From positions 71 to 64,070 of the forward strand of contig JAZDHJ010000059.1 of the NCBI GenBank assembly GCA_043805995.1: DNA of 64,000 nt. Direction: 5' to 3'. Below the pieces are notes generated by a model. It had not been told where the DNA came from and did not search any database. It saw only the letters and a list, made by a program, of their open reading frames with translations. Positions 654-36,973 of this stretch are shown in pieces. Numbering within the stretch: position 1 is the first letter of the stretch; every line of letters starts with the position of its first letter. The translations under genes were made by a program, and so were the position numbers. Source of the DNA: Candidatus Uhrbacteria bacterium. Lineage in GTDB: Bacteria > Patescibacteriota > Patescibacteriia > UBA9934 > GWF2-40-263.

Positions 654-759
654 GCGTTTGTTCCGACGGCAATTATATTAACAAAAGGGACGAATTTAGG
701 CAAGAGTGAATATCCCCAACGATTGCTTGGGAGAGGTGAACCCTTCGACCTGGCTCAGG

Positions 760-850: not shown

Positions 851-885
851 ATTTTTTGGTTGGATTAAATTGGTGGTTTTTGTTT

Positions 886-5571: not shown

Positions 5572-5581
5572 ACAAAAAAAA

Positions 5582-5782
5582 TTAATTTGTTTTAGAAGTA
5601 AAAATTTTTGAAATAAAACCACGAATCCGATCGGCGGCTTTCGCTTCACCGGCTTTAATGGTTTTTTTGACCAAATCGTCGTGTTCGTTTTTAATCGCCG
5701 CCACTGACTGTTCAAACTCTTGAGTGATTTGAACGGCCGCTTTTATGCGATCGTCGGCAGTTTGTGAGGTGGGGTCGGCCAT
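5582..5782 (-). CDS. Small hypothetical protein (66 aa); stop lies 10 bp upstream of the large coiled-coil gene start
   Basis: ORF only; the tight spacing suggests co-transcription. Confidence 0.35.
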   Translation of the reverse strand: MADPTSQTADDRIKAAVQITQEFEQSVAAIKNEHDDLVKKTIKAGEAKAADRIRGFISKIFTSKTN

Positions 5783-6050
5783 ATGTTGGTGATTATAGCA
5801 CGGATTGGGGTGGAGTTGGGAGGCGACATGGGCTTCAGGCCTCGCCCGTAGGCTATGGCCGAGGGGGCTTGATGGGCTTGGCTGGAGAGGCCAGAAGAGG
5901 CTTAAAAGGCTTGAGAGGCTTTGTGGGGGATGGTTTTAGGGACTAAGGTTGGAACTGGGAAACGTTTCTAAATCAAAGCCACGCGGCCCTCCTTCGCTAG
6001 GGCTACGGAAGGGTGAACGAGATCCTTCTCTGGCTCAGGATGACAAATAT
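5783..6050. repeat. Composite intergenic repeat block: a G-rich GGCCTCGCCCGTAGGCTATGGCCGAGGGGG unit plus CCTTCGCTAGGGCTACGGAAGGG and GATCCTTCT-TGGCTCAGGATGACA units
   Basis: The same submotifs are seen at 8521-8640, 32690-32870, 35395-35570 and 42404-42740. Confidence 0.55.
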
Positions 6051-6054
6051 TGTA

Positions 6055-8442: not shown

Positions 8443-8444
8443 AT

Positions 8445-8769
8445 GGTGGAAATTATTGAATTTTCAAATTATTTAATTATTGAATTATGGAAAATTATCT
8501 TTTACATTTTTAAAATTAACCCTTTCTCCTTCTCTCGAGCTTCCTCCTTCGCTCGTGACGAGCTACGGAAGGACGCGGTCGGAAGGACAAACCGCTCGCG
8601 TCGAGTGGCAAACGAGATCCTTCTTTGGCTCAGGATGACAGGTGAATTGGAATGTCAAATGACAAATGATGGAATTTATTATTCTAAAAATTCAACCTCC
8701 ATACTTAGACACCCCTAACAATCGAGCTTCCTTAATTCAATAATTCAGAAATTAAATAATTCAATAATT
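8445..8769. repeat. Intergenic repeat block: AT-rich AATTATTGAAT iterations plus a CCTTCGCTCGTGACGAGCTACGGAAGG unit and a GATCCTTCTTTGGCTCAGGATGACA unit
   Basis: Direct reading; the same units occur elsewhere (5985-6050, 17770-17830, 60090-60110). Confidence 0.5.
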
Positions 8770-10158
8770 TCAAATCTCCTTTATCTCCACAAAATTTACC
8801 CGTTTACCGACTGGCTGACCAGCTAAAATGATTATTTTTTCTCCCTGTTTAACCAAATGTTCTTTTTTTAATCTTTTAATGGATTTGGCAATCAAATCAT
8901 CAATATTAAAAGTTTTAGGAATGGCGATAGGCGAGACAGCCCAGGATAAACACAATTGATGGCGAACAAATTCGGAAGCGGTGGCGGAAATAATCGGTAG
9001 TTCTGGTCTAAAACGGCTAACCAATCGCGCAGTACTACCGGAAAGTGTAGCTACTAAAATAGCATTGGCCTTAACTGTACGAGACAATAAGTTGGCCGCG
9101 CCGCCAATAGCATCCTCGATAACTTTTACAAAACCCGCCGCCTCATCTGGCGAAACATCGTCAAAAGGTGAGGCCTCGGTTTCCATAATAATTTTTGCCA
9201 TGGTCTCGACGGCCTCGACCGGGTATTTACCGGTTGCGGTTTCACCCGACAACATGACGGCGTCGGTGTGATCAATAACCGCATTGGCAACGTCGGAAAC
9301 CTCGGCCCGCGTCGGTCGAGGATTTCGGATCATGGAATCGAGCATTTGGGTGGCCACAATAACTGACTTACCAATTGTCCGGCACTTTTCAATTATTTCT
9401 TTTTGCACTAAAGGCACCTGCTCGGCCGGAATCTCGATTCCTAAATCACCACGAGCCACCATGACGGCGTCGACTTCTTTGAGAATTTCATCGAAACGAC
9501 GAACCGCTTCGTGCTTTTCGATTTTCGCAATAATCATGGGAATTGGTTGACTGGCTTTGGCTTTTGTTTTTAAAAGACGTCGCAGATTGCGAATGTCTTT
9601 AGGATCAGTCACAAACGACATGGCGACATAATGTACGCCTTCACGGACACAAAAAGCCGCATCTAAACGGTCTTTTTCGGTAAGTGGTTCAATTTTTAGC
9701 GTTGAGTCGGGAAAATTTAAACCTTTATGAGAAGTAAGCGTGCCACCGACGTTAACTTTAATTTTTAAAAATCCGGACTTACCGCCGATACACTCGCCAT
9801 CCATAATTCCATCATCAAGCAAAATCCGATCGCCTTTTTTGACGTCACGAAAAAGATTCGGATAAGTGACTGGAACCTCAATTGTTTCTCCTTTAACAAT
9901 TTTCAAACCTGCCGCCGGCAAATCACCAACTCTAATTTTTGGTCCTTGGAGATCACCAATAATAGCAATCGGTTCACCAAGTTTTTTCTCAACCGCTCGA
10001 ATACTTCTAATCGTCGCCCGATGACTTTTATAATCACCATGCGACAAATTTAATCGAGCCACGTTCATACCACTGCGAATCAATCGGGTAAGTTTAACAG
10101 TTGATGAAGAAGCTGGACCGATGGTGCAAACTATTTTAGTTCTTTTTTGTGGTTTCAT
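8770..10158 (-). CDS. pyk: Pyruvate kinase
   Basis: 462 aa; N-terminal TKIVCTIGPAS...MNVARLNLSHG is characteristic of pyruvate kinase. Confidence 0.9.
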   Translation of the reverse strand: MKPQKRTKIVCTIGPASSSTVKLTRLIRSGMNVARLNLSHGDYKSHRATIRSIRAVEKKLGEPIAIIGDLQGPKIRVGDLPAAGLKIVKGETIEVPVTYPNLFRDVKKGDRILLDDGIMDGECIGGKSGFLKIKVNVGGTLTSHKGLNFPDSTLKIEPLTEKDRLDAAFCVREGVHYVAMSFVTDPKDIRNLRRLLKTKAKASQPIPMIIAKIEKHEAVRRFDEILKEVDAVMVARGDLGIEIPAEQVPLVQKEIIEKCRTIGKSVIVATQMLDSMIRNPRPTRAEVSDVANAVIDHTDAVMLSGETATGKYPVEAVETMAKIIMETEASPFDDVSPDEAAGFVKVIEDAIGGAANLLSRTVKANAILVATLSGSTARLVSRFRPELPIISATASEFVRHQLCLSWAVSPIAIPKTFNIDDLIAKSIKRLKKEHLVKQGEKIIILAGQPVGKRVNFVEIKEI

Positions 10159-10169
10159 ATTGTTTTTTT

Positions 10170-10384
10170 GGGGTTAAGGGGACGGAAGGGGTTAAAGGGG
10201 TTGCAGAGGGTTTTAAGTTGGGTCGGAGTTTTGTTGGTTATTATCGGAGGGTGGTTTTTAGGTGATTAAAAAGGTGATTATTTTTTTGATAGTTAATAAC
10301 TCACCAATCATCTAAATAATCACTCTAATCAACACCAAATAAAATCCTCTACAACCCCTTCCGCCCCTTAAACCCCTTATTCCC
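10170..10384. mobile_element. MITE-like G-rich element of about 215 bp with terminal inverted repeats (GGGTTAAGGGGACGGAAGGGGTT ... AACCCCTTCCGCCCCTTAAACCCC)
   Basis: The ends are reverse complements of each other; it sits exactly between the pyk start and the htrA stop; related to the 35395-35570 and 42404-42740 elements. Confidence 0.5.
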
Positions 10385-10387
10385 TAA

Positions 10388-11584
10388 TTACTCCTCCTTA
10401 TACTCCTCAAGCGTCACCAACAATTCCAACGTCTCCTCGCCGCGCAAGACGGTCAGTTTCAAAACGTCGCCAGACAAATGTTCACGAACGACTTTTGATA
10501 AAGAATTTTCTTCGGTTAAAATTTCACCGTCAACTTTTGTCACAACGTCACCGGTTTTCAAACCAGCTTTATCGGCCGGGCCATCTTTAACAATTGCTTC
10601 ATCGCCCTCATCAGCCGAAATCAAAGCTCCAACTTCAACCGGCAAACTTTCCGCCTCGGCGTATTCTTTATTGATCATAAGAAAACGCACACCGAGCCAA
10701 GGCCGAATAATTCGCCCGTCTTTTTTGACACTCTCGATGGCCTGCTTAATCTCATTAACCGGAATGGCAAAACCCAAACCCTGACCGTCAGAACTAACAG
10801 CTGTATTCATACCAATAACCTCACCTAACAAATTGATAAGCGGACCACCGGAATTTCCTAAATTAATAGCGGCGTCAGTTTGAATAGCGCCTTCAATAAC
10901 TTCACCACCGCTCAAATTATCATAAGTTTCCAGACGACGATTAACGCCCGAAATTACGCCTTTGGTAACGGTGTTTTGATATTGAGAAAGAGCATTGCCA
11001 ATAGCAATAACTGTTTGTCCAACTTCCAAATTGTCGGCGTCACCAAAAACCACCGTTGGAAAATTAGCCCCTTCGATTTTTAAAATCGCAATATCAAAAA
11101 ACGGATCAATATCAACAACTTTTGCTTCGTATTCTTTATCATCAAGAGTTACCACGGTAAAGAAAGCGTCTTCCTCTTCTACCACATGACGATTGGTTAC
11201 GACATAACCATCACTCGTAACAAAAAAACCAGTCCCGGCCCCGACCTCGACAAGCTTATCTGGATCTTCAATTTTTGGTTCAACTGGAGCCTCTTGGCCA
11301 AAAAAGAAGAGATTCATGGAATTGGTTTGAACGTCCTTAGCTTTCTTTTTTATAACGATGCTCACCACAGCCGGCGTGACTCGATCAACCACACTAATGG
11401 CCGAAGATTCTTCCTCGATCATTTGGATAATATTTTTATCAACTTGATCTGAGACAGAAAACAATCTACCTGATAAAGAAAAATATTGATTGGCCAAAAA
11501 ACCGCCAAGCACACCGAATGAGGTGGAGATGAGGACGGTAATGGCTAGTAAAACTATGAGGGTTGTAGATTGTTTGTTTTCCAT
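10388..11584 (-). CDS. htrA: HtrA/DegP-family serine protease with C-terminal PDZ domain
   Basis: GTGFFVTSDGYVVTNRHVV (His), GNSGGPLIN (Ser) catalytic motifs; PDZ-like C-terminus; N-terminal TM/signal. Start chosen at MENKQSTT, since the upstream extension of the track ORF overlaps a repeat. Confidence 0.9.
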   Translation of the reverse strand: MENKQSTTLIVLLAITVLISTSFGVLGGFLANQYFSLSGRLFSVSDQVDKNIIQMIEEESSAISVVDRVTPAVVSIVIKKKAKDVQTNSMNLFFFGQEAPVEPKIEDPDKLVEVGAGTGFFVTSDGYVVTNRHVVEEEDAFFTVVTLDDKEYEAKVVDIDPFFDIAILKIEGANFPTVVFGDADNLEVGQTVIAIGNALSQYQNTVTKGVISGVNRRLETYDNLSGGEVIEGAIQTDAAINLGNSGGPLINLLGEVIGMNTAVSSDGQGLGFAIPVNEIKQAIESVKKDGRIIRPWLGVRFLMINKEYAEAESLPVEVGALISADEGDEAIVKDGPADKAGLKTGDVVTKVDGEILTEENSLSKVVREHLSGDVLKLTVLRGEETLELLVTLEEYKEE

Positions 11585-11591
11585 ATGGTAG

Positions 11592-11733
11592 GGGTTACGA
11601 ATCACGAATTTTGACACGAATCTACGAATCAACGAAATTGGTTTTTATTTTCAAAACAACATTCGTTGATTCGCCGTGCCCATCCGTAGCTCGTCACGAG
11701 CGAAGGTGGGTGACACAATTCGTTATTCGTAAC
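11592..11733. mobile_element. Degenerate third copy of the GGGGTGCGAATAACGAAT-TIR MITE
   Basis: Left end GGGGTTACGAATCACGAAT and internal ATTCGTTATTCGTAAC resemble the TIRs of the copies at 18647-18879 and 36235-36431; it contains a CCTTCGC-family unit. Confidence 0.4.
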
Positions 11734-11805
11734 TGCCAAGAAATTATACCAGAAAAAAGATTAAGAAAACAGTGGAAAAAAGATGAAAAAATTATGAAAA
11801 AAAAT

Positions 11806-11832
11806 GTAGAGACAGGGCATTACCCTGTCTCT
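11806..11832. repeat. Hairpin TAGAGACAGGGCATTACCCTGTCTCTA, the same hairpin carried inside the MITE copies
   Basis: Perfect 11-bp stem; MITE copy 2 has TAGAGACAGGGCATTGCCCTGTCTCTA and copy 1 has TAGAGACGTTGCATTGCAACGTCTCTA, which differs by compensatory changes. Confidence 0.6.
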
Positions 11833-11877
11833 ACGCCGTTTTACATTTTTTTAAATTTTTGGCTTTTTTACTTCATA

Positions 11878-11990
11878 GGACTTTCTCATTTGGCTGCAGA
11901 ACGAGGAAAAACCTGAATTTTTTGTGAGACGTATGCCTTATACGTTGAACAAAAAATTCAGGCTTTGACGAAGTTATGCGCCAAATGTGA
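11878..11990. repeat. About 105-bp nested-palindrome element, copy A, immediately downstream of the ftsZ stop; inverted relative to copy B at 13300-13405
   Basis: CCTGAATTTTTTG...CAAAAAATTCAGG outer stem and ACGTATGCCTTATACGT inner stem; its reverse complement matches 13300-13405 at roughly 85%. Confidence 0.65.
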
Positions 11991-11995
11991 AAGTC

Positions 11996-13270
11996 CTACA
12001 TCATCTTTTTCCGAATAAACGCCGGGATCTCCAATTCCTCTTCCTCGGTTGTCTGTTGCGGTTGTGGAATTGAAATTGGTCTTGGGGTTAATTTTGGTTG
12101 CGGTTGTTGCAGTGGCGGCATGTTTACATTAATTGGCCGTGATTGAGTTTGTTCGTCGATAAAACGTGGTTTCATGTTGGTTGATGGTGGTTGGAGTGAA
12201 GAGGGTTTTGTTTGATGCTTTTCTTCCTCTTCACGATCACGGCGGGAGAAAAAAGAACTGGGTGTCCAAGTGCCTTGGGATTGAACCTCTACCCCACCAC
12301 CTGGACGACGACGATCGTGATGATCAAAGCCAGTGGCGACTACAGTAACTCTAACCTCTTCATTTAAACTTTCGTCGATGTTGGCACCGAAAATAACCTT
12401 AGCATCTTCATCGGCTGAACTGGTAATAATTTTAGCGGCCTCGGCCACCTCGTGCATACCCAAATCCTTACCGCCGGTAATGGTAAACAAAATGCCTTTA
12501 GCACCATCAACCGAGAGCTCGAGGAGTGGACTGGCAATAGCCTGCTTAGCCGCCTCAACGGCTCGATTTTCACCAGTCGCTCGGCCAATACCCATAAGTG
12601 CCGAACCAGCATTTTCCATGATGGCTCTAACGTCGGCAAAGTCGACGTTAATAAGACCTGGAATAGTAATAAGTTCTGAAATACCTTGCACACCCTGACG
12701 CAAAACATCGTCGACGATATTAAAGGCATCGAGGAGCGAAGTTTTTTTATCAATAATTTGTAAAACCCGATCATTAGGAATGGTAATCACTGTATCAACA
12801 TACTGAAGAAGTTCAGCAAAACCTTCTTCGGCAATTCGACGGCGTTGGGCGCCTTCGAATGAGAATGGTTTTGTGACCACGGCTACAGTAAGAGCACCAA
12901 TATCTTTTGCTAATTTAGCAACCTCGGGAATAGCACCGGTACCGGTTCCGCCGCCCAAACCACAAGTTAAAAAAACCATGTCCGCACCATTAAGTGCATT
13001 ACGAATATCATTCTGACTTTCCTCGGCCGAACGACGACCAAGTTCCGGATTCATACCAGCTCCCAAACCGCGGGTAATACTTTTACCAATGGCAATTTTA
13101 GTTGGGGCGGGATTATTATGAAGAGCCTGAACATCAGTGTTGATAGCAATAAAATCAACACCTTTTATTTTGTCGCTGATCATGCGAATAACGGCCGCGC
13201 CACCACCGCCGCCAATACCGCAAACTTTTATTTTAGCGAAGGTTTCAATGTCCGGTTGTACTTGTGCCAT
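11996..13270 (-). CDS. ftsZ: Cell division protein FtsZ
   Basis: GGGTGTG tubulin signature, N-terminal IKVCGIGGGGGAAV; Pro/Gln-rich C-terminal linker. Start chosen at MAQVQPD. Confidence 0.95.
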   Translation of the reverse strand: MAQVQPDIETFAKIKVCGIGGGGGAAVIRMISDKIKGVDFIAINTDVQALHNNPAPTKIAIGKSITRGLGAGMNPELGRRSAEESQNDIRNALNGADMVFLTCGLGGGTGTGAIPEVAKLAKDIGALTVAVVTKPFSFEGAQRRRIAEEGFAELLQYVDTVITIPNDRVLQIIDKKTSLLDAFNIVDDVLRQGVQGISELITIPGLINVDFADVRAIMENAGSALMGIGRATGENRAVEAAKQAIASPLLELSVDGAKGILFTITGGKDLGMHEVAEAAKIITSSADEDAKVIFGANIDESLNEEVRVTVVATGFDHHDRRRPGGGVEVQSQGTWTPSSFFSRRDREEEEKHQTKPSSLQPPSTNMKPRFIDEQTQSRPINVNMPPLQQPQPKLTPRPISIPQPQQTTEEEELEIPAFIRKKMM

Positions 13271-13299
13271 ATAAATGTTGTTCCAGAACTTCCTCGTTT

Positions 13300-13405
13300 G
13301 GCGCATAACTTCGTCAAGACCTATATTTTTTCGTTCAACGTATTCGCATACGTCTCACAAAAAAATATAGGTCTTTCCTTGTTCTGCATCCAAACGAGAA
13401 AGTTC
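13300..13405. repeat. About 105-bp nested-palindrome element, copy B, immediately upstream of the ftsZ start
   Basis: CCTATATTTTTTT...AAAAAATATAGG and ACGTATGCGAATACGT; the stems differ from copy A by compensatory substitutions on both strands. Confidence 0.65.
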
Positions 13406-13690
13406 TGTGTTCAAGTGAGTTACCGATGAACACTTTTTGTCGTCATTTAAATCTCTTCAGGACTACTTTAGAGCTCAAGAGGGTCAATTGTAAAGGCAGG
13501 CCTGTGGACAAATAAACTCTTGGAAATTAATGAATTATTTAATTATTGAATTTCTGAATTATGGAGGGTTATTTATTTTAAAATATTTTTCTTCAAACAA
13601 AAAAATGGATCATCCGTAGATGATCCGAGCGTCGAGTGGTTTTGATTTCGAAGAACGAATCTGGTTCGAAGTGATTCAAGAAACTGCGAA

Positions 13691-16744: not shown

Positions 16745-17785
16745 CTACTGAACCAAAACCAAACTATTTATCATCATTTCAAAAGTCGCCAGATAATCAA
16801 CCGTGGCTTTAACGGTATTTGAATAACTCATAATCACAACTCGACTACCAGCCTCGATGTAAACTGTCATTTGATCTTCAGTTACCAACATTTGATAACC
16901 GTTTTTAGTTTTTGATTCACTAATTTTTATATTTGAGGTCGGATTAGCATTACTAAACCAGGCAGCTAAAGGAATGGCCGCGTCTTTTTCTTCCAAACTC
17001 AAAATTACACTTTCACCGCTCGGCACAACAAAAACCATATTATTTAATTTTTCAGGCTCAGTTTTTGCTGTCCAAATTGTAGGATAATAAAGTGAGTAGA
17101 GATTCTCAACAGAATATTTTGTGACCAGGGCAGTATCGCTCAACTTGGCCGGTGAAGGCACATTTGGATCATAACCGTGAAAAACCTCATTACCGTCAAG
17201 AAAACCATCACTATCAGTGTCTGGTTTTTTAGAACTGGTGCGATAAAAAATTTCTTCGGCATCAGTCAAACCATCACTGTCAGTATCACGACCGGGTTGA
17301 GAGTTATTTGGAAAAGGCGAAGTAGTTGTTCCGCCTGTAGTCACCGGTGGAGTTTCCACTACAACCGGCGGGGTTTCTGTAATTGTCACCGGTGGAGCGG
17401 TATTGACCGGTTTGTTGGTAGTAATGGTTTGATTATTTTTAACCGGCTGAAGTGAATAAAAAACATAAATACCAGCCGAACTTAAAACCATCAAGAGAAC
17501 CACGCCGGCAATAATGATCAGCTTAGTGGTTTTGGCCAGGCCTTTCTTTTTCAAAATCGAAACCGGTTTTACTGGCGGTGGCGGTGGAACCGGTTTAACC
17601 GGAACCGGAGCCGCCGATTGAGTAGCGGCCGGCTTAATTACCGGCGGATTCACCCTAGCCGCCAAACCGCGAAAACTTTCAGGCATAGCAAAAATTTGCG
17701 GCTCGCTTTGAGACGGTTTTGCCCCTGGCGGAGTTTCTAATTTTGGTAATTGAACGTCGGGCATATTTGTTGGCTGAAATTTCAA
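16745..17785 (-). CDS. Membrane protein: Pro-rich cytoplasmic N-terminus, one TM helix, extracellular thrombospondin-type-3-like Ca-binding repeats, plus a C-terminal domain
   Basis: DTDSDGLTDAEE and DTDSDGFLDGNEVFHGYDPNVP motifs; TM segment LIIIAGVVLLMVLSSAGIYVF; stop abuts the ybeY start. Confidence 0.6.
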   Translation of the reverse strand: MKFQPTNMPDVQLPKLETPPGAKPSQSEPQIFAMPESFRGLAARVNPPVIKPAATQSAAPVPVKPVPPPPPVKPVSILKKKGLAKTTKLIIIAGVVLLMVLSSAGIYVFYSLQPVKNNQTITTNKPVNTAPPVTITETPPVVVETPPVTTGGTTTSPFPNNSQPGRDTDSDGLTDAEEIFYRTSSKKPDTDSDGFLDGNEVFHGYDPNVPSPAKLSDTALVTKYSVENLYSLYYPTIWTAKTEPEKLNNMVFVVPSGESVILSLEEKDAAIPLAAWFSNANPTSNIKISESKTKNGYQMLVTEDQMTVYIEAGSRVVIMSYSNTVKATVDYLATFEMMINSLVLVQ

Positions 17786-17884
17786 ATGACAAATTATTGA
17801 ATGTCAAATGATGGATTTTTATTTTTCTAAAAAATTAAGCTTCCTTCATTAGACATTTGACATTCGATCAATTTGAAATTTCCA

Positions 17885-18541
17885 TTATTCCCCTTCAGTA
17901 ACCGGCAACTCAAACAATTTGCCGGCGCCGTTTGGATTGTAGCCGCTTTTAACTTCATCGCCATCTTTATAACTATCACCGTCAGTATCCGGCGACAGAG
18001 GATTAGTGTGATAGACTTCAACTTCTTCGCGGTCAAACAAACCATCGTCATCAGTATCAGTTGAGGTTGGGCTGGTTCCAAGTTCAGCTTCACGAGTGTC
18101 GGTTAGACCATCTTTATCAGTATCAACCTCAACCACCGGTTCGACTACCGGCGTCTGAACCTCGGTTTTGACAGGAGGAGTTGTTGGGATAGTTTCGGTT
18201 TTTACTTGAGTGTTCGCAGTATTGGCAAGATTGTTAACACTTTCAGTAACCGGTTTAGAACTCGAGAGAATGTATCTGGACAACATGGCTCCGGCGGCAA
18301 TAACCACGATCGCCCCAAGAGCAATCAAAACAATCGGTTTCCAAGCAATGGTTTTAGCCGGTTTCACTTCGCTACCAACCGACGGCATACCAGGCGGAGT
18401 TGCAATGTTTGATGGTGGTGGTTGAATAGGTGGAACAGTTGGGCCAGTTGAGGGTACGGGATTACGAAAAGGTGGTGGTACAGGCGATTGATCAACTGAG
18501 GCAAAAATATCTTCGGGTGGTTTTTTTAGTTCGTCGAACAT
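17885..18541 (-). CDS. Membrane protein with C-terminal TSP3-like repeats; paralog of 16745-17785 and 18885-19772
   Basis: DTDKDGLTDTRE, DTDDDGLFDREE, DTDGDSYKDGDEVKSGYNPNGAGKL. Start set at MFDELKK, because the 20 upstream codons of the track ORF (MAGPRQNPMPAGN...) are a translation of the cruciform repeat. Confidence 0.6.
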   Translation of the reverse strand: MFDELKKPPEDIFASVDQSPVPPPFRNPVPSTGPTVPPIQPPPSNIATPPGMPSVGSEVKPAKTIAWKPIVLIALGAIVVIAAGAMLSRYILSSSKPVTESVNNLANTANTQVKTETIPTTPPVKTEVQTPVVEPVVEVDTDKDGLTDTREAELGTSPTSTDTDDDGLFDREEVEVYHTNPLSPDTDGDSYKDGDEVKSGYNPNGAGKLFELPVTEGE

Positions 18542-18565
18542 ATGGGTTGAAATTTCTAAATTATT

Positions 18566-18618
18566 CCCCGCCGGCATAGGATTTTGGCGGGGTCCCGCCA
18601 AAGGCCTCCGCCGGCGGG
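18566..18618. promoter_or_regulatory. Nested cruciform element CCCGCCGGCATAGGATTTTGGCGGGGTCCCGCCAAAGGCCTCCGCCGGCGGG, immediately 5' of a start codon
   Basis: Outer stem CCCGCCGGC/GCCGGCGGG and inner hairpin TTTGGCGGG-GTC-CCGCCAAA; copies at 45752-45804 and 60033-60083, partial copy at 33466-33510; flanked by AATTATTGAAT iterations. Confidence 0.45.
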
Positions 18619-18646
18619 ATAATTATTGAATTATTGAATTATTGGG

Positions 18647-18879
18647 GGGGTGCGAATAACGAATTTTGTTATCCCGCCGACGGAGGCCTTCCTCCTACGC
18701 TCGGGCTTCGGAAGGACAGGTTGGCGGGATCCCGCTCCGAGGCCTACGAGGCGGGACGAATCTACGAATCTACGAATATGAATTTTCGTCCGTAGAGACG
18801 TTGCATTGCAACGTCTCTACGATCGATCGCCGACATTCGTATATTCGTAAATTCGTAATTGATTCGTTATTCGCACCCC
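18647..18879. mobile_element. MITE copy 1 (233 bp) with 18-bp terminal inverted repeats GGGGTGCGAATAACGAAT / ATTCGTTATTCGCACCCC
   Basis: TIRs read directly; internal hairpin TAGAGACGTTGCATTGCAACGTCTCTA; carries a nested CCTTCGC-family unit that copy 2 lacks; ends 5 bp beyond the stop of the adjacent gene. Confidence 0.7.
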
Positions 18880-18884
18880 AATCT

Positions 18885-19772
18885 CTACAACCTTCCTTCC
18901 CCAAGCGGATTGTAACCACCGTCTATTTCGACCTTATCGGAATAACCATCGCCGTCGGTATCAGATTTGGCTGGATCGGTTTTGTATTTATGATACTCGT
19001 CATAGTCAGAAAGTCCATCACTATCTGAATCTATGTTTTCATCACTGATGCCAAGTCGTTTTTCAATTGACGCGTCAAGATTATCCAAATCTTTATCACC
19101 AACCCCAACCGAATCAACGCAACCGCCCTGATCTTGGGGGTTCGACAAAAGCATGCACTGGCCAGGATCTCTGGACGCAATCGCCTTACTTAAGGCTTCT
19201 TGTCTAGTACAAATACTCGGATCAATACCAGTTCCTTGGCATCCTTTTTGCTGAGCAATCTGTTCAGAGACAGTATTAATACATCTGGTTTTACCAATTT
19301 CGCTATTAATTTTTTCGCACCAAGACAAATCTAAATTCACCCCAGCCAAACTTCGATAAACCGTATCCTGACAACCGGTTTGTTTTTCCTTGATTGGAAT
19401 ATTTTTACAGGCTTCAGGATCATTTTCTTGTAAAGCTATTTTCCAAACACAAGTCACCAAAGAGTCATCGGTCAGCTTATTGCAAATTTCAGCTGAACCG
19501 ATTGAACCGGCACTCATTTCCACCATATCAGCTCGACACTGTTCAGGAATTTTAGCTTGATCGCATTCAGACAAAGTTCGGTCCAACTCCAAACTTACTC
19601 GTTCAATGACCGCGGCCTGCTGACCAGCTTCGGTTTTTGTCGAAATCAACCACCTGGCCCCAAAAATAATCAAAATGATAAGAATAACCGTGCCACCAAT
19701 TATAGCAATTGTCTTCCAAGAAATAGGCCCTCGGGTAGGCGCATATTGATCAAAACCGTTCATAAAAAGCAA
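18885..19772 (-). CDS. Membrane-anchored Cys-rich extracellular protein with C-terminal TSP3-like repeats
   Basis: N-terminal TM helix TIAIIGGTVILIILIIFGARWLI; more than 20 Cys; C-terminus DSDSDGLSDYDE...DTDGDGYSDKVEIDGGYNPLGEGRL; start is 4 nt from the giant gene stop. Confidence 0.6.
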   Translation of the reverse strand: MLFMNGFDQYAPTRGPISWKTIAIIGGTVILIILIIFGARWLISTKTEAGQQAAVIERVSLELDRTLSECDQAKIPEQCRADMVEMSAGSIGSAEICNKLTDDSLVTCVWKIALQENDPEACKNIPIKEKQTGCQDTVYRSLAGVNLDLSWCEKINSEIGKTRCINTVSEQIAQQKGCQGTGIDPSICTRQEALSKAIASRDPGQCMLLSNPQDQGGCVDSVGVGDKDLDNLDASIEKRLGISDENIDSDSDGLSDYDEYHKYKTDPAKSDTDGDGYSDKVEIDGGYNPLGEGRL

Positions 19773-19775: not shown

Positions 19776-22700
19776 TTATCTGATCGGACAATAGTTTAAA
19801 CTTATATTACTAATGTTAATTGTACCAGTTCCGTTAAAATCAAATTTTATTGGAATCTCACTTTCTGTGGCGCCGTTACAAGCAAAACCTTCTGGGAAAG
19901 GTATGGTTACACCATTACCTTCGGTTACTGGCCCAGAAGTTATATGAGTTCTGTTATTAACTTCCGTGGTTAATCCAATATGCATATTTACAATGCTCCC
20001 AAGTATTGAATCGAACATTGATGTAAAACCCGAAGCTGTGGTGGCCGAATAGGCATACTCAACACCGTCTTCAGCGTTCTCACGACAATCGGTAACACTT
20101 TCAAAAGGATCGTTGGCTGGATAATTGCAAGACTGCGGGATAGATTCACTACAATAACCATCGATATCATCATCACTAAAAATACAGTTACCTTCGGCAC
20201 ACTGACTATCGTCCCAACAATCGTAGAGTTCTTCCTCATCATTAAGATCCTCGCAATAACCTATTATTCCATCGTTACAAACTGAATCACGGTGATCCTC
20301 TTCTACGTCTGCACATGTAATTGTCGGATCGTTTGAGCAACCGCCTAAACTGCTACACGATGGATAATCTCCACCGCAAGTCGTTCCATCCAGACTGCAC
20401 GTTCCAAGGGCAGAAGAGTTTGTGTCACAGTCATCACTGGAAAAATGTCTCATGTAGCCCAGAACGGTATCAGAATCATCCAGAGGTAAGGCGGCCGAAT
20501 AAACTTTAATTCCAGCTGCCGTTAACTCATTAGTAACAACTCGAGCTTCATCCGCGGCTGTGTCAATAAATTCAGAATAAGCCTCGCCATATGAACCATC
20601 TGACATTCTGACATTTGGCAAACCGTCGCTTAAAAGGATAACGATTTTACTTTGAGCATTCGAACGTGATAATAAATCTTTTGCGCATAACAAACCCGCA
20701 GCTGTTGGTGTTCCATTCTGTAAACGAGAAGCATAAGAAACAACACCGTGATCCGAATCATACAAAAGATCACTTTGGATATTTGTAAAACCCGCATCAG
20801 TAAACGCCAATGGCACCGCATCGTCTCTGCTGGTAACACAAGCCGAGGCAAGAATTGCCAGACCTTGATCAGTTGTCAGACCTTGATCCCAAAGGCTTTC
20901 TTCACCAGAAAAACTGACTAACGCAATTCGCAATTCATCAATATGATCAAAAAGGTCGTCTATTGTTTGAGATAAAACTTCGGTCGCAACACTAATACTG
21001 GTTCCAGGAGCCATTGGCGTATTTGTGTAACCCATAGTAGTGGAGAGATCGGTCACAAAAACAATGTCAGTAGAAGGCGGTGTCCAATTAGTGGTATCGA
21101 TATCGGCGGTTATAGCTGTGCCTATTTCGCAAGCCGGAATAAATAACGTTGCCAAATCAGGACTGTTACCGGCCCGATTATTAAAATCATAAAGATCGGC
21201 GCTGGTTTGTTTGGAAGCTCCGGCTAATTCGGTTTGAATCAAAATCGAAGTTGATTCATAAGTTGTCGGACAAGTAGCGTCGCAGCTATTGGCGCAAGCC
21301 GGCTCAACACAAATTCCCGCGTCGCCAGACTCATCTAATCCGCATTCCTTAGAACTGCTATATGATCCGACCACATTCACACACGGTTCGGCATTGTAAT
21401 AATATTGGTTTGTCGATTCATAACCCCCATTACAAGCTCCAACGTTTTCACAAGTATAACCCGTGGCACAGTCGGCTGGTTGTTCACAGACTGAACCAAT
21501 AATACGTAAACTTGGATCGATTGAACCGCTGAAACAGTACCTGGGAGAATCGACACCATCGCAAAACTCGCCGGTCTGGACAGTTGCATCGCCGCAGTAG
21601 GCACCAGAAACTGTGGTGTACTGACAATTTATGTTGCAATAAGAACAAGTGTCATCATATTCTGGTGAGCAAACATCACCATTTTCATTTCCATTGTCAC
21701 AGGTTTCGTGACCGGCATAAACATAATCATCACCACAAACACTGACTGTACATTCAGAAGTACAATCATCGGTACTATCATCATTACCATCATCGCATTC
21801 TTCATCACCTTCTAAAATTCCATTACCGCAAACTTGATCGCCACCCAAACAAGCGGTCCAAGTTTCCCAAGTACAAGTCGCGCCAGGGGCGTCATTGCAA
21901 GTTCTGGTACGTGACAGTTGATACTCGGCCGAGCTGCAGGTACCGTTTGCGGCCGCGCAATCCGAACCACAAGGATAACCATCTTTAATTCCTCCATCGC
22001 TGCTCTCGCAAACTCTGGCAATATTACAAGCTTGAAATCCCGTAGCGTTACCGCAAACTCCACCGGTTCCGCAATCACTGTCCACGGTGCATTCTTCATT
22101 AATATTGGTTCCGGCGCTACAAAGACTGCCACTCCACGATTCGTAACCACCATCACAGACTTCGGGACCATTCAGCTCACCGTCACCGCAAGACGGACCC
22201 GGGAAGGTGCAATCAAAAGCGCAAGTATCGTCGTAAGTTGTATCGTACTGACCATTGGCGGCGTCACAACTGTTGATAGAGGCCCAACTGGTGGCAGGCA
22301 GATTTGAAGACCAATTGATGGTTGAATAGCAATCACATTCTTCACCACCAGCAATAAAACCATCGCCGCAAGAAAAAGAACCACCGTTACAGCTTTGACT
22401 ACAATGACCATAAGTACCATTTTCTTCTCCGTCGTCACAAAGTTCTGTTCCCTCTTTTACGCCATTACCACAAGAATAAGGAATGCAAGCCGACGTGGCC
22501 GCTGTCTGCCAAGCGCAAGTGCTAACTGAATTCACCATTGTTTCCACACAACCAATATTTTGAGTACCTCCTGTACAAGTTCGAGATTCGTATTCACCGA
22601 TTTCACAAACCTCGGCCTCGTTAACAGTTAACGTATTTGGATTATCTGTTGCCTTAACCCCATCTCCACAACGAGACGAAGAAGTTCCCATGGTTACATT

Positions 22701-25700
22701 ACTACACATTGGTCCGGTTGTTTGAAAACCGCCCGATGTTGCCGGATTTGTTAATGCCGATTCTGCTGAAGATGATGTATAAGCATACTCAGCATAAAGC
22801 GTGGCGTTGTCGGCTGAGTCGTCATCAAGTGAGTAACCCCAGGTTCCGATAATATCACTGCCTTCAAGTTGTACGCCTAATTTATAAGCCACGCCGCCAA
22901 GATTTTGGTAAAGATAAACGTGCGAGCCCTCATGACAAGTAAATTGCCCGGCCGCACTGTCCCAACAATAATTTTCATCGGCACCGGCATGACAACCAAC
23001 AAATTCATTTATTGGATCCGTCGGCAAAGTTGTCCCCAAAGCATTATCTAATTCTGATGTCCATGAAGGCCAAGTGCTGGTAGTAAAAGATGAAAGGAAG
23101 GTACCGCTAATTAATGGCGGCACGTGTTGCTGACAAATTTCATTACCCGGACAATCATCATCTTCGCCGCACAACTGATCGGAGGTTACCGAACAATAAC
23201 TGAAAAGCTGACCATAATTATCAATAATCGTGGCGATTTTACGAGCGTCGGTTAAACGTTTTAAATCTCGAGTCAATTTAGCTTTTTCTCCATCACAAAA
23301 AGCCGAGTCGTCAGTTATTGTTCCACCAGACTGAGTTACTCCCTGACAATCACCGTCCCAATCGCAGGAGACGAGATTTTCGTCTGTATCGTAAACGTAA
23401 TTTACACTTATGGAATCCTCAGTACCTCGACTTTTACAGACATTATCGGAACAAAAGAGTGAACCAGCGCCCGCATCGCATTCTTCGTTTAAAGTGCAGG
23501 GATAAGGTTGACCATCTGAATCAAGAACGGTTTCTTCTGTCGGCAAAGTTATGGTAACAGAATCTTTACAAACATTTACATCGGTGATTACCGAATCGTT
23601 GGTGTTGAAAGTCCAACTATCCAAAACTTGACCAAAAATATTTTCCATTTCGTCACTTGCACCCTCATTATAAGAAATGACGTAAATATTTGGATAAAGA
23701 ATTTTTGTCGAAGTGACTGGATCATTAGAATTGACTGCGGAAACATAATAAGTATTTCCGTCTTGTACCGCTTCGTAACCATCAACAGTGGTCTCTGAAG
23801 GTGAGCCGGTAAAACCTTGATCGGCAAACCAATCGGCTGGAGTAAGATAATTAGGATTTGGTAAAACCCGAACGCCGATGGCGTCGTTATTTGCCAAAAA
23901 GAGCAATTCTTTAAAGATTGTGGTCGAAGCAACCGAGGTTACTTCCCTCACAGTTAAGCTAGGTAAGAGATCAGTTGAACCGGCTTGATCTCGACAGTAG
24001 GAGAAGGCGAAATTGGTGAAATTACCGGTAGCCGACAAACCAAGTTCGACAGCACTAGAGCTCGTGTCTTCAAAACGATAACTACCACCAGTCCTTCTGG
24101 TGGCCGGCCAAGGATTGCTGCAAAGGAAAGTTGTCAAATCAGTTTGACCTGTAACAGATGCATTGACTGTTCTGCCGGAAGAATCAACACTTGTGATATT
24201 TGCCGAGATAACAGCCTGAACCGTTCCATCCTGAGTTTCCGAAGTGGCAGTAGTTGTTCCGGTACCAGTGGCAGCTGGAATGTTCACAATGGTTTCATCG
24301 CTAGCTTCAGTTGAACTCCAAGCACCCCAAGCCCAAGAATAAACACCTGTTATGCTTTGAATCTGTGAGGCCACGGCTCCGTTTAGTGTGAATCCAGCGG
24401 CTGTCAAAGTATGTTGTTCGCCGGTTGATGAGAAAAACCCTGGACTCGGATCTTCATAAATATCGGCACCGATTATTCCGTTATCAATAACCGAAACGTA
24501 ATCAAGAGTACAAATATCTGCCCTGGTCACAAACATGCTTGATTCATTGTTTAACAAATCAACGCCGTCAGCGCTCATCGCTCCGTTTGTATAAGTACCG
24601 GTTGAATTAGACTCACCCATTATGAATAAACTATATTCAGCGTTGGCCACCAAAGCTTCTGGCAAATCAAGGCCAATTTTTGTGGGAGTTACCAGGGTAT
24701 AATTTACCGGCACCAGACAGGCTGAAATTGTCGTGGCTTGAGCACCAAAAATTTGCAAAATATTATCTCTTAACCAATGCCAGGCCCGAACCAACAAATT
24801 TTCATCTTCGTTATTTTCCAAAGTCAAAGAAACAACAGAAGTATAAGACTCCGGGCATTCTGTCAAATCGTCAACAGAATTACCGGCCGTACAACTAGCG
24901 TCTATACAATCTATTTTATTCAATTTCAAATACAAAGTACCTGAATTTTTTACAGCCTCAACATCCATTGGTTGACTGAAATTAACCCAAACTGCCGTAT
25001 TACGACAAACACTTGTCGCACTAATCTCTGGATAACGTCCGAGAACCGTCGGACGACTAAAACAACAACTGGAATTACCGCAGCCGTAACTATTTGCATC
25101 AGTAGTAGAATTGCAGCTGGCATCGGTGGTACAAGAACACTGCAAAGTTAAATAACCATCGCCTGTTTTATTACTTACATCTTCTTTGGCTGTAATTTTC
25201 GAAGAAGCAGAATTTCCTCCCTGGTCGCGAATCTCTTGTTGCGCCGTGTTGGAAATATAAGCCAAGACAAAAGGAGCAATCCTTGTTGCACTGGCCGAAG
25301 TTGCCTCGCACTCTTCCCCAGTTTCCCTGACACCATTACCACAAACAGCGCGACGAGAATCACTTGAACCTTCGGACAAACAGCTGGAAGAACAACCGTC
25401 GCCGCTCACAGAATTTTCATCATCACAATCTTCGCCAGTCTGAGGAACACCGCCGTTACCACACAGCGAATTATAAATAGACGAGGAACCTTCGTTCGTA
25501 CAACTCGATGAACAACCGTCACTGTTTGTAGTGTTTTCGTCATCGCAATCTTCGCCTCCTTCAACAACACCGTCGCCACAAATGGCCGGATAATTACTTC
25601 TTGATTCAGAACCAAGATTCAAACAATTCGCAGAACAATTATTGGCCGAATTTTCATTACCATAATCGCATTCCTCGCCACCAGCTTGATCGCTATGGGC

Positions 25701-28700
25701 CACATCACCGTTTCCGCAAGTTGTACCAACCGAAGAAGCACCAACAGATAAACAAGTTGCTGAACAACCAGGATGACTAGTCAATGCCGGATGGCCTGTC
25801 GACGCCCCAAAATCACAATCTTCACCTGCATTAATGGTTCCATTACCACAAGTTGAACCCGTTGTTCCTATATTCAAACAAGTTGTGGAACAACCAATAC
25901 CACCGTCGCAATCTTCACCCGGTTCTACACATTGCCCATTATTGACATTACATTTTTCGCCGACGCTACAATCACTGTCTGCATCACAATCAAAAACTGC
26001 ATTGTTACCGCAAATGGCCACCGGTGCCGGCGAACCGGTATTTAGACAAAGACTAGAACAACCTACTGGCAAACTTGAAGCGACCCTTAGAGGACTTGTT
26101 CCGCTATAACCAAACAGAGAAGCCACGGTTGCGATTGTGTCGGCCAATTGTCCCTCGTAATCTGTAGCCGTCCAAGCTTCCCAATTATATCCGGAAGCAA
26201 TCAGACGCTGACCTTCGTCAGAACAGTCGTCGGCTGTACCGAATGGCACAGCGGTAAATCGCTGGATATCACCGATTCTTTGCAAAGTGGCCGAGCTTGG
26301 TTCAACTTCAACCCGATCCACTTCGCAGGTAGCATCACCGGTCGTAAAAGTCCAAGTAAGATCACCGTTATACCAAGCCATGTCTCCAACAGCCTCGGCC
26401 AAAGTGGAACCGCTGTCTGATTCGGCATCTTTAGAAACCGTCACGCGGTATGAAGTGTTGGCAATTAAATCAGAGTGGTTAATTATTAATTGATAAATTC
26501 CATTTATAGCATCACCTGTATAAACCGGTGAAATGTGTAAACTGGAAGTTACATCGGTTACTTCGTCTGGAGCGCAGGCTTCGTCTTCACATCCAAACAA
26601 CTTGACTCGATTGTTAGCAAAAGTGTCGACTTTCATGGCCAGATTAAATGTGAGACCAATCTCGGCATTCAAACAAGCCTCGGAACAACTTGGCCAATAA
26701 TTACTAACTTGCGGATCAGAAAAATTAATGGTTAATTCACCAGAACCATCGACGCTTCTTTCACCCCCATTACCATAGTTAAGTTCAAACCAAATTGAAA
26801 CAGGCGATCCGACGGCGGTTTCTTGATACGGCAAAGCCAAGGCGTCGCATATGGAATCCTGCACTCCAACCGTGTTCGGATCTATATCGGCCGCTCTATC
26901 TACAACTGCAGCTTTGGTACTGTTTCTTGAACCGAAATCCCAAAAATTATCCCCGGAATCGCAAGTTAAAAGAGTGCATTCGTATTCCTCTGACACCGGT
27001 GTAGCCGAATAAACTACGGCCCCTGTGCAAGTTAAATCACCCGCCTGACAAATACTATTGGCAGTATACTCAGCCGGATCAACTAAAACCCCCCCAACCG
27101 TACAAGGCTCGCCGTCGGCCGAGGTTTCAAAATACCAGACATAATTTTGCAGCATACCCAAACCTCTTGCACTTAAAACACCGGTTTCGCCACCAGAAAC
27201 TGTTACCTGGTAACGTTTACCCGGGAGCCAACCAGATCCTTCCGGATAATTTGGTTGCCAAAAAAAGCTCCGACTGGTCGGACTCGAAGCCACAGTCATT
27301 GGTACAACTGTCGTGCAGGAATCGCCGACGCATTCTTTAACTAAAATAGTACTGGCCGTAAAAGTTGACGAATTCATGTCCTCGGTAAAAGACACGTGCA
27401 ATATTGCATCTGAACAAACATCTGTGCCACCCTCCCAACCTTCATAAGGCGACGGTGAAACGATTCTTGGGGAGACGCCCGGCGCTGAACACTCCACTTG
27501 AATTGCCGGATTATGTGGAATATCACCGGTGGAAAAACGATAAGCATAATGGGCAGCAAAAGATTCTGCCCCACCACAGCCTAAAGTTGTAGACGAACAA
27601 GCTCCAGTATCGCAACATTCTTGACCGGTAGCACAAGTAAAATCAACATCGCACATTCCAACCTGAAAATTTATAGAATTTGATTCTTGTCCGTCCTTAT
27701 CGACTATAAAAACCGGACCGGTTTCAGTACCTTCTGGCACTGACATTGGATGAGCAATATTACCGAGAATCTGACCGTCGTCCCAAGTAACCGGAGTCGG
27801 GGTGACCTCTACGCCATTATAAAATTCCACTTTTCCAAAAGGAGCCACCGTGCCGGCATCGTCCTCAAATCCCTCACCATAAATCGCCACAGTTGTACCC
27901 ACCGGACCAGCGTCTGGAACCAAAGCACAAATACCAGGCGAGGCCTCACCAGCAGTCACCAAAAAATCGATAGTATCCGAAGACAAGCCACCACGCACCA
28001 CCCATAAATCATGCAAACCGGCAACTACTGCCGGACTGGTTTGAGTTAAGCCATAAACCGCCGGAACCTTGATGACAATTGTGTCGTCTGACCAATAAAC
28101 CGATTCGCAAGCGTCAGGAAAATTATTATTGCCAAGCCCTTCGTATTCAGTTGATTGATTTTGAAAACGAACCGTGCCTTGAGTGGTGCCAAAATTTGAG
28201 CCATAAATTGTTACGTATTGTCCGGCCGGACCGGCATCAAGACAAGACGAACCACCGCAATCCGCATCGCTTGAACAAAGAACTGTGGAATCATTAACAC
28301 AACGCCTTAAACCAGAATCAACATCGATAATAACCGGCGGTTCGGTATTGGAAGAAGTGCTAACCGCAAATTCTTTAACATTGGAGCCTTGGCGGCTATC
28401 AGCCTCACCGGAAAAAAATTGAACATCATAAAAACCACTGTCCAAAAGCGGCGAAATGACAGAAAAAGAAGTTCCATCAGAATTCCAATTGGCATAACTG
28501 GCGGCTTCGTAACTGCCAAAATAAAAAGTGGAATTGCTCAATTCAGCACCAAAATTTTTTCCAGATACCGCCACAGAATCACCACCCTGACCCGCATTCG
28601 GCGATATATTACAAATACCTGGTCGAACTGTAGTATTCACGTCAAAATCACCAATGACAGATCCGTTATCATCATTAGTTTGGTCAAATTTATCATTAAC

Positions 28701-33307: not shown

Positions 33308-33329
33308 ATTTTTGATTGGGTTATGTAAA

Positions 33330-33600
33330 TAGGTAGAAACATAGAAATTGTAGATTGGTAGAAAACGTAGAATTTTTGTCGGTTGTTTGCTTTTGAACTC
33401 TGATTAAAATGATTTTCTGATTACAATGATTTATTTTTAATCCAATTCCAACAATCATGGCCATCACTTCCCGCCGGTGGAGGCCTTTGGCGGGATCCCG
33501 TTCGAAACTAAGAGGCGAGATAATCAGTTTAATCAGAGTTCAGCCAACCAACACAACAATCTACGCCGTCTACGACTTCGACTATTCTACTAAAACCAGT
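33330..33600. repeat. Intergenic palindromic element (TTGAACTCTGATTAAA ... TTTAATCAGAGTTCAG) containing a partial cruciform unit CCCGCCGGTGGAGGCCTTTGGCGGGATCCCG
   Basis: A 16-bp inverted repeat flanks the core; the TTTGAACTCTGATT motif is shared with the 42404-42740 element. Confidence 0.5.
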
Positions 33601-33602
33601 AT

Positions 33603-33632
33603 ACAAAAAAGCGGCTAAAGCCGCTAGTTTGT
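33603..33632 (-). terminator. Rho-independent terminator of rpsU
   Basis: Minus-strand hairpin AGCGGCTTTAGCCGCT followed by UUUUUUG. Confidence 0.6.
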
Positions 33633-33893: not shown

Positions 33894-33957
33894 CTTCCTT
33901 TCCTGCAGGAGCTAAATAGCCTCTGCTTAAGTTTTGACGCTGGTTATAATGCCTTTT

Positions 33958-35391: not shown

Positions 35392-35394
35392 ATT

Positions 35395-36194: not shown

Positions 36195-36234
36195 AGTTCC
36201 TGTCTAAAATACTCCAAATAAAAAGAAAAAGCAA

Positions 36235-36918: not shown

Positions 36919-36973
36919 CTGTTTTCCCCTCCCTCTGATTTTCGAGGTTGGACTGATTGTTTGGTAGGGTCTC

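Follow-up and report, generated by a model that had tools for sequence, protein, structure and literature searches.

A probably mobile, REPIN-like double-hairpin repeat between the genes of a Patescibacteria bacterium

In the bacterial interspersed mosaic elements (BIMEs) of Escherichia coli, Y and Z types of repetitive extragenic palindromic (REP) unit alternate, and GC-rich palindromes in the mitochondrial DNA (mtDNA) of Neurospora associate with tRNA genes. REPINs are REP doublets, in which two inverted units fold into one hairpin (PMC3116915, PMC3337134). The known kinds closest to the element treated here are REPs and REPINs and, by design, the GC clusters (PMC4478555) and double-hairpin elements (DHEs) of mitochondria; the mobility of DHEs has been inferred from presence/absence between relatives, in work cited in PMC7218506. 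For Patescibacteria, also known as the candidate phyla radiation (CPR), we found no description of REP, MITE (miniature inverted-repeat transposable element) or palindromic repeats in the searchable literature. Here, we describe a 52-nt double-hairpin repeat in a 64,000-nt stretch of the genome of Candidatus Uhrbacteria bacterium (assembly GCA_043805995.1, contig JAZDHJ010000059.1, positions 71 to 64,070), hereafter the window, and compare it with related loci in other genomes and metagenomes. The element is probably a REPIN-like or DHE-like mobile intergenic repeat, made of non-coding, insertional DNA in AT-rich spacers. Closely related genomes differ by gain, loss and inversion of its copies, over short evolutionary time, and the copies land beside either gene end and in either orientation.

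A preliminary description of the window had reported a conserved nested cruciform immediately 5' of start codons, in three near-identical copies and one partial copy. These copies are real, at positions that were right within 1-4 nt, and none is present in shuffled sequence. The three full copies (A, B and C; Table 1) are 52 nt each, with pairwise identities of 86-88%, and the partial copy consists of one hairpin unit with a degenerate partner. Two variant copies, at 18673-18755 and 36260-36311, had been overlooked, and the six copies per 64 kb are all intergenic. The pattern CCCGCCG-N9-TTTGNCGGGNNCCCG has eight strand-matches in the window (both strands) against none in 100 dinucleotide shuffles, and the core GGCGGGNNCCCGCC has four matches against 0.08 expected. 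The variant at 18673 is a side branch within a palindromic element of ~230 nt (about 18643-18880), and that at 36260 falls within another palindromic element, next to its left inverted end (GGGGGGCGAATAACGAAT).

The building block of the family is a 25-nt hairpin, H, with the form CCCGCC-GNC-(xyNNNy'x')-TTT-GGCGGG. In a full copy, H is joined through a 2-nt linker to an inverted second H whose apical class differs, and other copies join H to a different second hairpin, CCCGYC...GGCGGG. Because of the H plus inverted H layout, the four G/C tracts can form two adjacent hairpins or, alternatively, an outer and an inner stem (a cruciform). The nested stems of the preliminary description, 9 bp each, do exist, and their complementarity constitutes the minimum-energy fold, one long hairpin of -32 to -40 kcal/mol (z -4 to -5, predicted RNA) closed by 9-bp terminal inverted repeats (CCCGCCGNC/GNCGGCGGG); the drawing was incomplete in that the 7-mers form covarying 2-bp apical pairs of their own. 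When 43 single units and 47 doublets are aligned, every one of these pairs (100%) is a standard one, with two-sided changes (GC/AU/UA/CG), in the types GG..CC, AT..AT, GT..AC, AG..CT, GC..GC and AC..GT, and all four (both end pairs of both 7-mers) are kept in 41 of 42 distinct full copies. Covariation analysis, which had been suggested as a check, bears these apical pairs out: 0 of 500 shuffles reach the apical score. Pairing of the left with the right 7-mer falls below shuffle expectation, and in 44-45 of 47 doublets there is no pair at columns 11-42 and 15-38. Because each 7-mer pairs with itself, covarying, and avoids its partner, the repeated unit is the 25-nt hairpin. The pair counts rule out both one long, perfectly paired hairpin and a simple internal loop separating two stems. 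The two arms of a doublet seldom belong to the same apical class (1 of 27 distinct 7-mer pairs versus 20% expected, p = 0.018), and it is the 25-nt unit, not the doublet, that is kept in distant lineages, for example as CCCGCCGTCGCTTCGCTTTGGCGGG in metagenome-assembled genomes (MAGs) labelled Omnitrophota. The earlier view of a conserved, strongly structured repeat common to unrelated genes holds.

The same features bear on whether a host protein, such as a nucleoid-associated protein, gyrase/topoisomerase (as at E. coli BIMEs) or a recombinase, binds the element as DNA or uses it as a structural site. The near-palindrome is orientation-independent and has a conserved core (GGCGGG-RY-CCCGCC), the mismatch at the middle base of the outer stem is itself conserved (N8/N45 unpaired in 35 of 47 copies), and one copy precedes topA. 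We consider it very unlikely nonetheless, as the covarying apical pairs point to a folded single strand or an extruded hairpin rather than to duplex recognition, a scattered and polymorphic distribution misfits a fixed architectural role, and no candidate binding protein was identified.

The closest genome is the MAG 'bacterium DeMMO3_36' (JAGVPA01), which has ~89% identity to the window (85-91% in coding regions) and is syntenic with it across 252-13588 and 33583-49205. One window protein has a homologue of 93% identity that is named Candidatus Uhrbacteria, and together these matches point to a Patescibacteria genome. A scan of 185,579 species genomes yielded 67 loci, 38 of them from DeMMO3_36, which together hold about 46 copies; others are in the Patescibacteria MAGs JBAZTR01, JBAZUI01, JBDRDZ01 and JAZDEQ01 and in Omnitrophota-labelled MAGs, and about 13 of the 67 are chance matches in GC-rich genomes. 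A metagenome scan added at least 120 further loci, and among the matches listed 100 carry family-like units. The combined set comprises 187 related loci among the matches listed, to which handles such as L035 refer. No family match was found in phage records, plasmid records or IMG/VR contigs.

Comparison of orthologous spacers shows rapid turnover of the element. In the topA spacer of DeMMO3_36 (L035 4457-4508) the copy is inverted relative to copy B, matching it at 51 of 52 positions as the reverse complement versus 39 of 52 directly, with a left flank that is 86% identical. Likewise, flanks of the form AATTATTC..ATAATTATTG hold the element in both orientations (copy A versus L094, L122 and L160). 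The sites L056 6411 and L035 3153 are occupied and the orthologous window spacers empty; window site 36260 is occupied and the orthologous palindrome at L039 3990-4130 lacks the element; and at L039 3041 and L056 1268 the entire spacer palindrome has been swapped for an unrelated one. Presence/absence and flip state are ready-made strain markers.

The flanks of the copies share direct, not inverted, repeats (mean longest shared word 7.95 versus 5.5, p = 2e-13). Direct repeats of at least 6 nt (mostly 7-8; range 6-13) abut 31% of copies against 9% of mismatched-flank controls, and are present at all three full window copies. The preliminary description had the element flanked by iterations of AATTATTG; copy A has three exact units and copy B shows them in part, and copy C is instead bordered on both sides by AATGTCTAAT, a 10-nt direct repeat. 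The great majority of tandem arrays between window genes have a period of 8, few having 7 or 9, and such arrays are also present without the element (8451-8492, 13525-13562 and 57874-57942); repeat modules may have left them as footprints or use them as targets, or they may have arisen by slippage.

The family resembles REPs and REPINs in having short (25 nt here, 20-40 nt there) imperfectly palindromic units that are extragenic and present in many copies, in inverted doublets that fold to a long hairpin, in compensatory changes, and in the presence of singlets beside doublets; as in BIMEs, the two arms of one doublet are different variants. It differs in that there is no GTAG-like tetranucleotide at the foot of the unit, the bases around CCCGCC/GGCGGG being variable (tt, at, cc, gc and others), and in that the doublet linker is only 2 nt. 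To our knowledge, systems of REPINs and their REP-associated tyrosine transposases (RAYTs) are proteobacterial, whereas the present host is a CPR bacterium, and we know of no single-strand HUH transposition that features flanking direct repeats of 7-8 nt. REPIN genomes have a cognate RAYT (Y1 HUH transposase) gene, usually with the repeats on its flanks. A phmmer search with E. coli RayT of 9,606 open reading frames (ORFs) from the window and the 187 loci (1.12 Mb), a single-sequence search of low sensitivity in incomplete genomes, gave no match at E <= 10. Membership in the REPIN/RAYT family is not established.

The likeness to the GC clusters of yeast mtDNA (GC42) and to the DHEs of Allomyces mtDNA lies in GC-rich hairpin or double-hairpin modules of ~40-50 nt that are mostly intergenic in AT-rich, gene-dense genomes. 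The host here is a bacterial genome and there is no sequence relationship, so that the analogy is one of design and behaviour rather than membership; moreover, GC42 targets the dinucleotide AG, whereas our flanking repeats are 7-8 nt. With MITEs of the Correia, ERIC or RPE type, which depend on a DDE transposase, the element shares terminal inverted repeats, direct repeats resembling target-site duplications, intergenic placement in either orientation, co-transcription as hairpins, and spurious ORFs. Unlike MITEs, it has a flanking repeat in only about a third of copies and of a length that varies from 6 to 13 nt; its 52 nt are at the low end of the known MITE sizes. No parent insertion sequence with the same ends was seen, and no transposase was found in a Pfam scan of 30 of the ~48 window genes. 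A known RNA family was rejected, since a scan of the window at Rfam gathering thresholds passes only tRNAs; an Rfam E-value scan of 18500-18900 returned only sub-threshold generic or miRNA-like hairpin matches. Tandem interspaced guide RNA (TIGR) arrays have long tandem units with two 8-12-nt spacers and box C/D motifs, beside a Nop-domain Tas gene (PMC12045711), and were rejected as well: the copies are dispersed singlets and doublets, the variable 7-mers are self-complementary, and the 30 window genes scanned contain no Nop domain.

Position relative to genes was scored for 61 non-redundant full copies, using crude ORF calls and ATG starts only; all copies in the 187 loci are intergenic. In co-directional spacers (30 copies) 16 are closer to a start and 14 closer to a stop, and there are nine copies in divergent and five in convergent spacers. 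Of 48 distances measured towards a stop, ten do not exceed 30 nt. A hand tally of asymmetric variants gave a mixed orientation relative to the neighbouring genes (6 sense, 12 antisense). As the start/stop split is nearly even and orientation mixed, copies are distributed largely at random with respect to gene starts and orientation, apart from an approximately two-fold excess 5' of ATGs. A fixed promoter or an intrinsic terminator was rejected: a conserved -35/-10 arrangement had been proposed as a check, and at the three full copies there is neither a sigma-70-like hexamer pair at a fixed distance nor, on either strand, a T-run after the element or a terminator-like site.

In the window itself the placement reported earlier is accurate. 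The three full copies are 22-25 nt 5' of the true start codons of two minus-strand genes and of topA. ORFs 17885-18601 and 59480-60067 start within the element and open with the element-derived LAGPRQNPMPAGN and LAGSRQSPTSAGE; as had been proposed, these are false N-terminal extensions. The first in-frame ATGs, at 18541 and 60010, are the real ones, and copy A is thus 25 nt from the start of a minus-strand gene at 17885-18541.

Several observations weigh against a mobile repeat and have to be set beside the turnover. Start-facing distances of 10-30 nt from the ATG make up 17 of 57, the modest, roughly two-fold excess noted above, and start-proximal copies often stand behind a recurrent leader, AAATAATT..TTTCCACC..ATG, before at least 10 different genes; this leader is also present without the element at window 8443. 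The single clean filled/empty pair (L056 versus window 13560) is a 72-nt insert with a 12-nt duplication, the insert consisting of 19 nt of AT words followed by the element and one more nucleotide, and not a simple 52-nt insertion with an 8-nt duplication. The flanking direct repeats could come simply from period-8 arrays that were there beforehand, either because the element inserted into them or because they slipped. We could link no mobilizing enzyme to the element and found no autonomous parent element sharing its ends. The relatives are all MAGs or metagenome contigs, which limits per-genome copy counts and some of the taxonomic labels. Finally, the 25-nt unit is conserved over very distant lineages, which is unusual in purely selfish repeats and hints at a conserved partner or function.

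The proximity to starts speaks for a different explanation, that the element is a cis-acting structure in the 5' untranslated region (5'-UTR) or near the promoter, an RNA hairpin or a protein-bound cruciform controlling translation start or mRNA stability of the downstream gene. The placement of the full window copies, the start-facing excess and the shared leader layout all fit this. Moreover, the topA copy is kept in both genomes, and a promoter-like TTGACG-17-CATTAT site is present 87 nt 5' of copy B, so that copy B would fall in the topA leader; in four lineages the element is 22-77 nt 5' of the start codon of a gene for a GIY-YIG nuclease (distances read by hand); and because no Shine-Dalgarno-like sequence precedes the window start codons, leader structure could matter. 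Against it, stops are nearest about as often as starts, some spacers are convergent, orientation is mixed, no promoter hexamers are fixed, and copies lie inside pseudo-copies of tRNA genes. Inversion of the topA copy presents different apical loops to any strand-specific reader, and presence/absence differs at orthologous housekeeping genes of close relatives. A dedicated regulator of this kind, as advanced in the preliminary description, is thus not borne out, and we regard it as unlikely. The closeness to ATGs in the window would be due mostly to very short native spacers together with a preferred AT-rich target or leader. A transcribed copy would add a hairpin of -32 to -40 kcal/mol to the mRNA and may incidentally affect its stability or processing, so that a 5'-UTR role is at most a secondary effect in a subset of copies. 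As a separate observation, A/T-rich runs stand before many ATGs in the window, and several ATGs have TTTCCACC or TTTCAACC at a distance of 2-5 nt on the 5' side (e.g. 8443-8460, 18542-18566 and 10159-10175).

If the element is a mobile repeat, it would propagate as DNA by machinery that reads hairpin shape. The apical pairs would covary because that shape is what such machinery would recognize, and the two arms would differ because perfect 52-bp palindromes would be counter-selected. In other lineages copies occupy the loops of pre-existing hairpins, either partial tRNA-gene copies or the apex of a palindrome. In the window lineage, complementarity between the +/-40-nt flanks does not exceed that of mismatched flanks, and placement in the loop of a larger local hairpin is not supported as a rule there; it does apply to the half copy at 33470-33519, which forms the tip of an imperfect hairpin of ~250 nt occupying the spacer 33308-33632, and to the tRNA-linked copies elsewhere. 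Nesting also runs the other way, as the variant hairpin 18673-18728 encloses a 35-nt insert (CCTTCCTCCTACGCTCGGGCTTCGGAAGGACAGGT), another repeat module, which stands alone at 781-815.

In other lineages the element is associated with tRNA genes, with 24% of 174 elements (a count that includes some loci duplicated between collections) within 150 nt of a tRNA gene against ~3% expected from the tRNA density of the same DNA. The tRNA-linked elements interrupt a truncated tRNA copy, precisely in its D-, anticodon- or T-loop, and the intact gene is adjacent; at L190, a locus retrieved through nuclease homologues (see below), a minimal doublet, CCCGCC-TTT-GGCGGG-AC-CCCGCC-GTA-GGCGG, is in the D-loop of a partial tRNA-Ser copy. 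Two of these inserts fall at anticodon position 35/36, and group I tRNA introns at that position occur in Patescibacteria (PMC13011429); an intron was rejected for our elements, as the host tRNA copies are truncated and stand beside an intact copy and the insert is only ~54 nt. In the window, tRNA-Met (53428-53504) and tRNA-Leu (53759-53845) each come after a partial copy of their own first 20-24 nt (53505-53575 and 53666-53740, respectively), with a different GC hairpin module in the D-loop followed by the inverse complement of the D-loop bases.

Stand-alone genes of 80-100 aa for GIY-YIG nucleases (PF01541; 17 ORFs in 15 loci) abut tRNA genes in nearly every locus having them, usually at less than 200 nt. 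Among proteins of solved structure they come closest to UPF0213 (E = 4e-5), with a weak match to SLX1 (E = 0.025-0.6), and NCBIfam holds no specific family for them. The order partial tRNA with element, GIY-YIG gene, intact tRNA recurs in four independent cases (L028 and L004, Thr; L008, Asp; L110, Glu), and loci seeded from the nuclease homologues again have the order tRNA, GC hairpin modules, nuclease gene. The window has such a gene at 252-509 (minus strand; 80-85 aa, UPF0213/SLX1-like), directly after tRNA-Asp (576-653, minus strand) and two GC hairpin modules (510-575); homologues of it stand in the same order in eight other loci, and a second GIY-YIG subfamily lies upstream of tRNA genes, behind a partial tRNA copy.

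SegB of phage T4 is a free-standing GIY-YIG homing endonuclease whose gene lies in a tRNA gene cluster (PMC2330249). Our loci are similar in that small GIY-YIG genes abut tRNA genes with the element in a displaced partial tRNA copy beside them, and different in that the proteins consist of the catalytic domain alone, are chromosomal in CPR and Omnitrophota-labelled MAGs, and are linked to the repeat by neighbourhood only. That neighbourhood could arise simply as both accumulate at tRNA genes. A speculative alternative, to which we give a minor share of belief, is that the double hairpin and its sister GC modules are cis-partners (end structures, substrates or non-autonomous derivatives) of a minimal UPF0213/SLX1-like GIY-YIG nuclease beside tRNA genes, which would read DNA shape (extruded hairpins or cruciforms) and not sequence, nick hairpin loops, and seed copy-in to loops and AT-rich spacers. 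If so, this would be a system analogous to RAYT/REPIN with a different enzyme, common to distant Patescibacteria and Omnitrophota, and its activity would account for the period-8 word arrays and spacer-wide palindromes as footprints. The neighbourhood of minimal nucleases and disrupted tRNA copies in any case yields a testable hypothesis of a new mobility mechanism.

Most long window spacers are themselves long imperfect hairpins composed of word arrays, with several families of GC-rich hairpin module inside (Table 1). One side holds iterated words (such as AATTATTG, GGGGTTAA, ACGAATCT and GGAGTGTT) and the other their reverse complements. Of two spacers whose folding was predicted, 33308-33632, whose apex is the element, has z = -7.6, and 18542-18884 has z = -13. 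In the 89%-identical relative, the palindromes of the orthologous spacers are unrelated to those of the window.

Two bracketing arrangements were also observed. A palindromic element of ~125 nt lies on both sides of ftsZ (11996-13306), at 11875-11998 and 13273-13390, and also at L039 3200-3323. Its outer part, GGACTTTC.C.TTTGG.TGCAGAACGAGGAAAAACC ... TTTGACGAAGTTATGCGCCAAA.G.GAAAGTCC, is conserved, including non-complementary stretches, in a distant Patescibacteria MAG, where its apex is taken by the double hairpin; an Rfam E-value scan gave no family for it, only sub-threshold miRNA-like hairpin noise. The ORF between these inverted repeats was rejected as a transposase, its product being FtsZ. 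At L009, L017 and L059 the double hairpin is found at the apex of this 125-nt palindrome. At L010, inverted repeats of 117 nt (202-318 and 4937-5053; double hairpin plus flanks, 88% complementary) surround a 4.6-kb housekeeping block, which was rejected as a composite transposon because its genes include those for trigger factor and for an AP-endonuclease-family (xylose-isomerase-like TIM-barrel) protein; the bracketing repeats could represent an invertible segment or transcript-end pairing.

Such spacers invite the explanation that the element is transcript 'punctuation', an RNA-level processing site or protective end-hairpin between operon cistrons that works in either orientation and is kept for that role even if it spreads selfishly. 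The role is known for some REP elements and has been proposed for mitochondrial palindromic repeats. It would suit a strictly intergenic element that is often within 30 nt of a gene end and whose near-palindrome gives a similar hairpin from both strands, in a window where most genes are co-oriented with tiny spacers and whole spacers fold to long hairpins; the bracketing of the L010 block and of ftsZ would fit too, and the presence of unrelated palindromes in orthologous spacers of the two genomes looks as if some hairpin were needed there. Many spacers, however, have no element, the presence/absence polymorphism argues against necessity at a given site, and where genes converge there are ordinary intrinsic terminators (38761-38806, 48086-48131 and 55397-55441). 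We rate this explanation as improbable, on a par with 5'-UTR control, and prefer a mobile intergenic repeat.

CPR genomes are regarded as extremely streamlined, yet the intergenic DNA here is largely made of nested palindromic modules that turn over faster than genes, among which the double hairpin is the clearest family. If it is mobile, it extends REPIN-like 'genomic replicators' to a very different bacterial branch, and a compact 25-nt hairpin found across phyla would offer a handle for finding the machinery that moves it. In practice, such repeats produce false N-terminal extensions and spurious ORFs in MAG annotation, and can break or mis-join short-read assemblies.

Table 1. Repeat copies, word arrays and spacer palindromes in the window
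Feature	Position	Strand	Composition and context
Full copy A	18567-18618		Unit 18567-18591 (7-mer ATAGGAT), GT linker, inverted unit 18594-18618 (7-mer GGCCTCC)
Full copy B	45752-45803		25 nt 5' of topA ATG 45829 (topA by Pfam)
Full copy C	60033-60084		GTTGGAC/AGAGGCT subfamily; 22 nt 5' of ATG 60010, gene 59480-60010 (minus strand)
Variant copy	18673-18755	+	First hairpin 18673-18728, partner hairpin CCCGCTCCGAGGCCTACGAGGCGGG 18731-18755
Half copy	33470-33519	+	Hairpin unit 33470-33494, then degenerate partner to about 33519
Variant copy	36260-36311	+	Unit 36260-36284, partner 36287-36311
Word array	18621-18644		AATTATTG x3, exact units, abutting copy A
Tandem arrays	8451-8492, 13525-13562, 18621-18644, 18756-18777, 45687-45716, 52239-52278, 57874-57942		e.g. 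CCACCACT x8.5 at 57874-57942
Spacer palindromes	8443-8769, 10159-10387, 18642-18884, 33308-33632, 36195-36510, 42404-42742, 52237-52356

Another palindromic module, TGTCATTC(C/T)GA..(G)AATCTCGCC / GGCGAGATTC..GAATGACA, recurs in spacers at 43283-43384, 44540-44575, 6016-6054 and 8610-8640 and at L056 1290-1390; we take it to resemble a repeat that yields spurious peptides in many annotations of uncultivated bacteria. The window also contains two giant ORFs, 19776-30284 and 886-5715 (both minus strand), of 3,502 and 1,609 aa, respectively. Genes near the giant ORFs (16745-19772) encode bacterial TSP3 repeats, a Big_5 domain and a T4SS-pilin-like domain, and the giant ORFs and these neighbours are probably surface proteins, as typical of CPR genomes. 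Lastly, between the HtrA-like protease gene and ftsZ the relative has an extra minus-strand gene of ~2 kb that the window lacks (L056 2700-4790 versus window 11589-11846).

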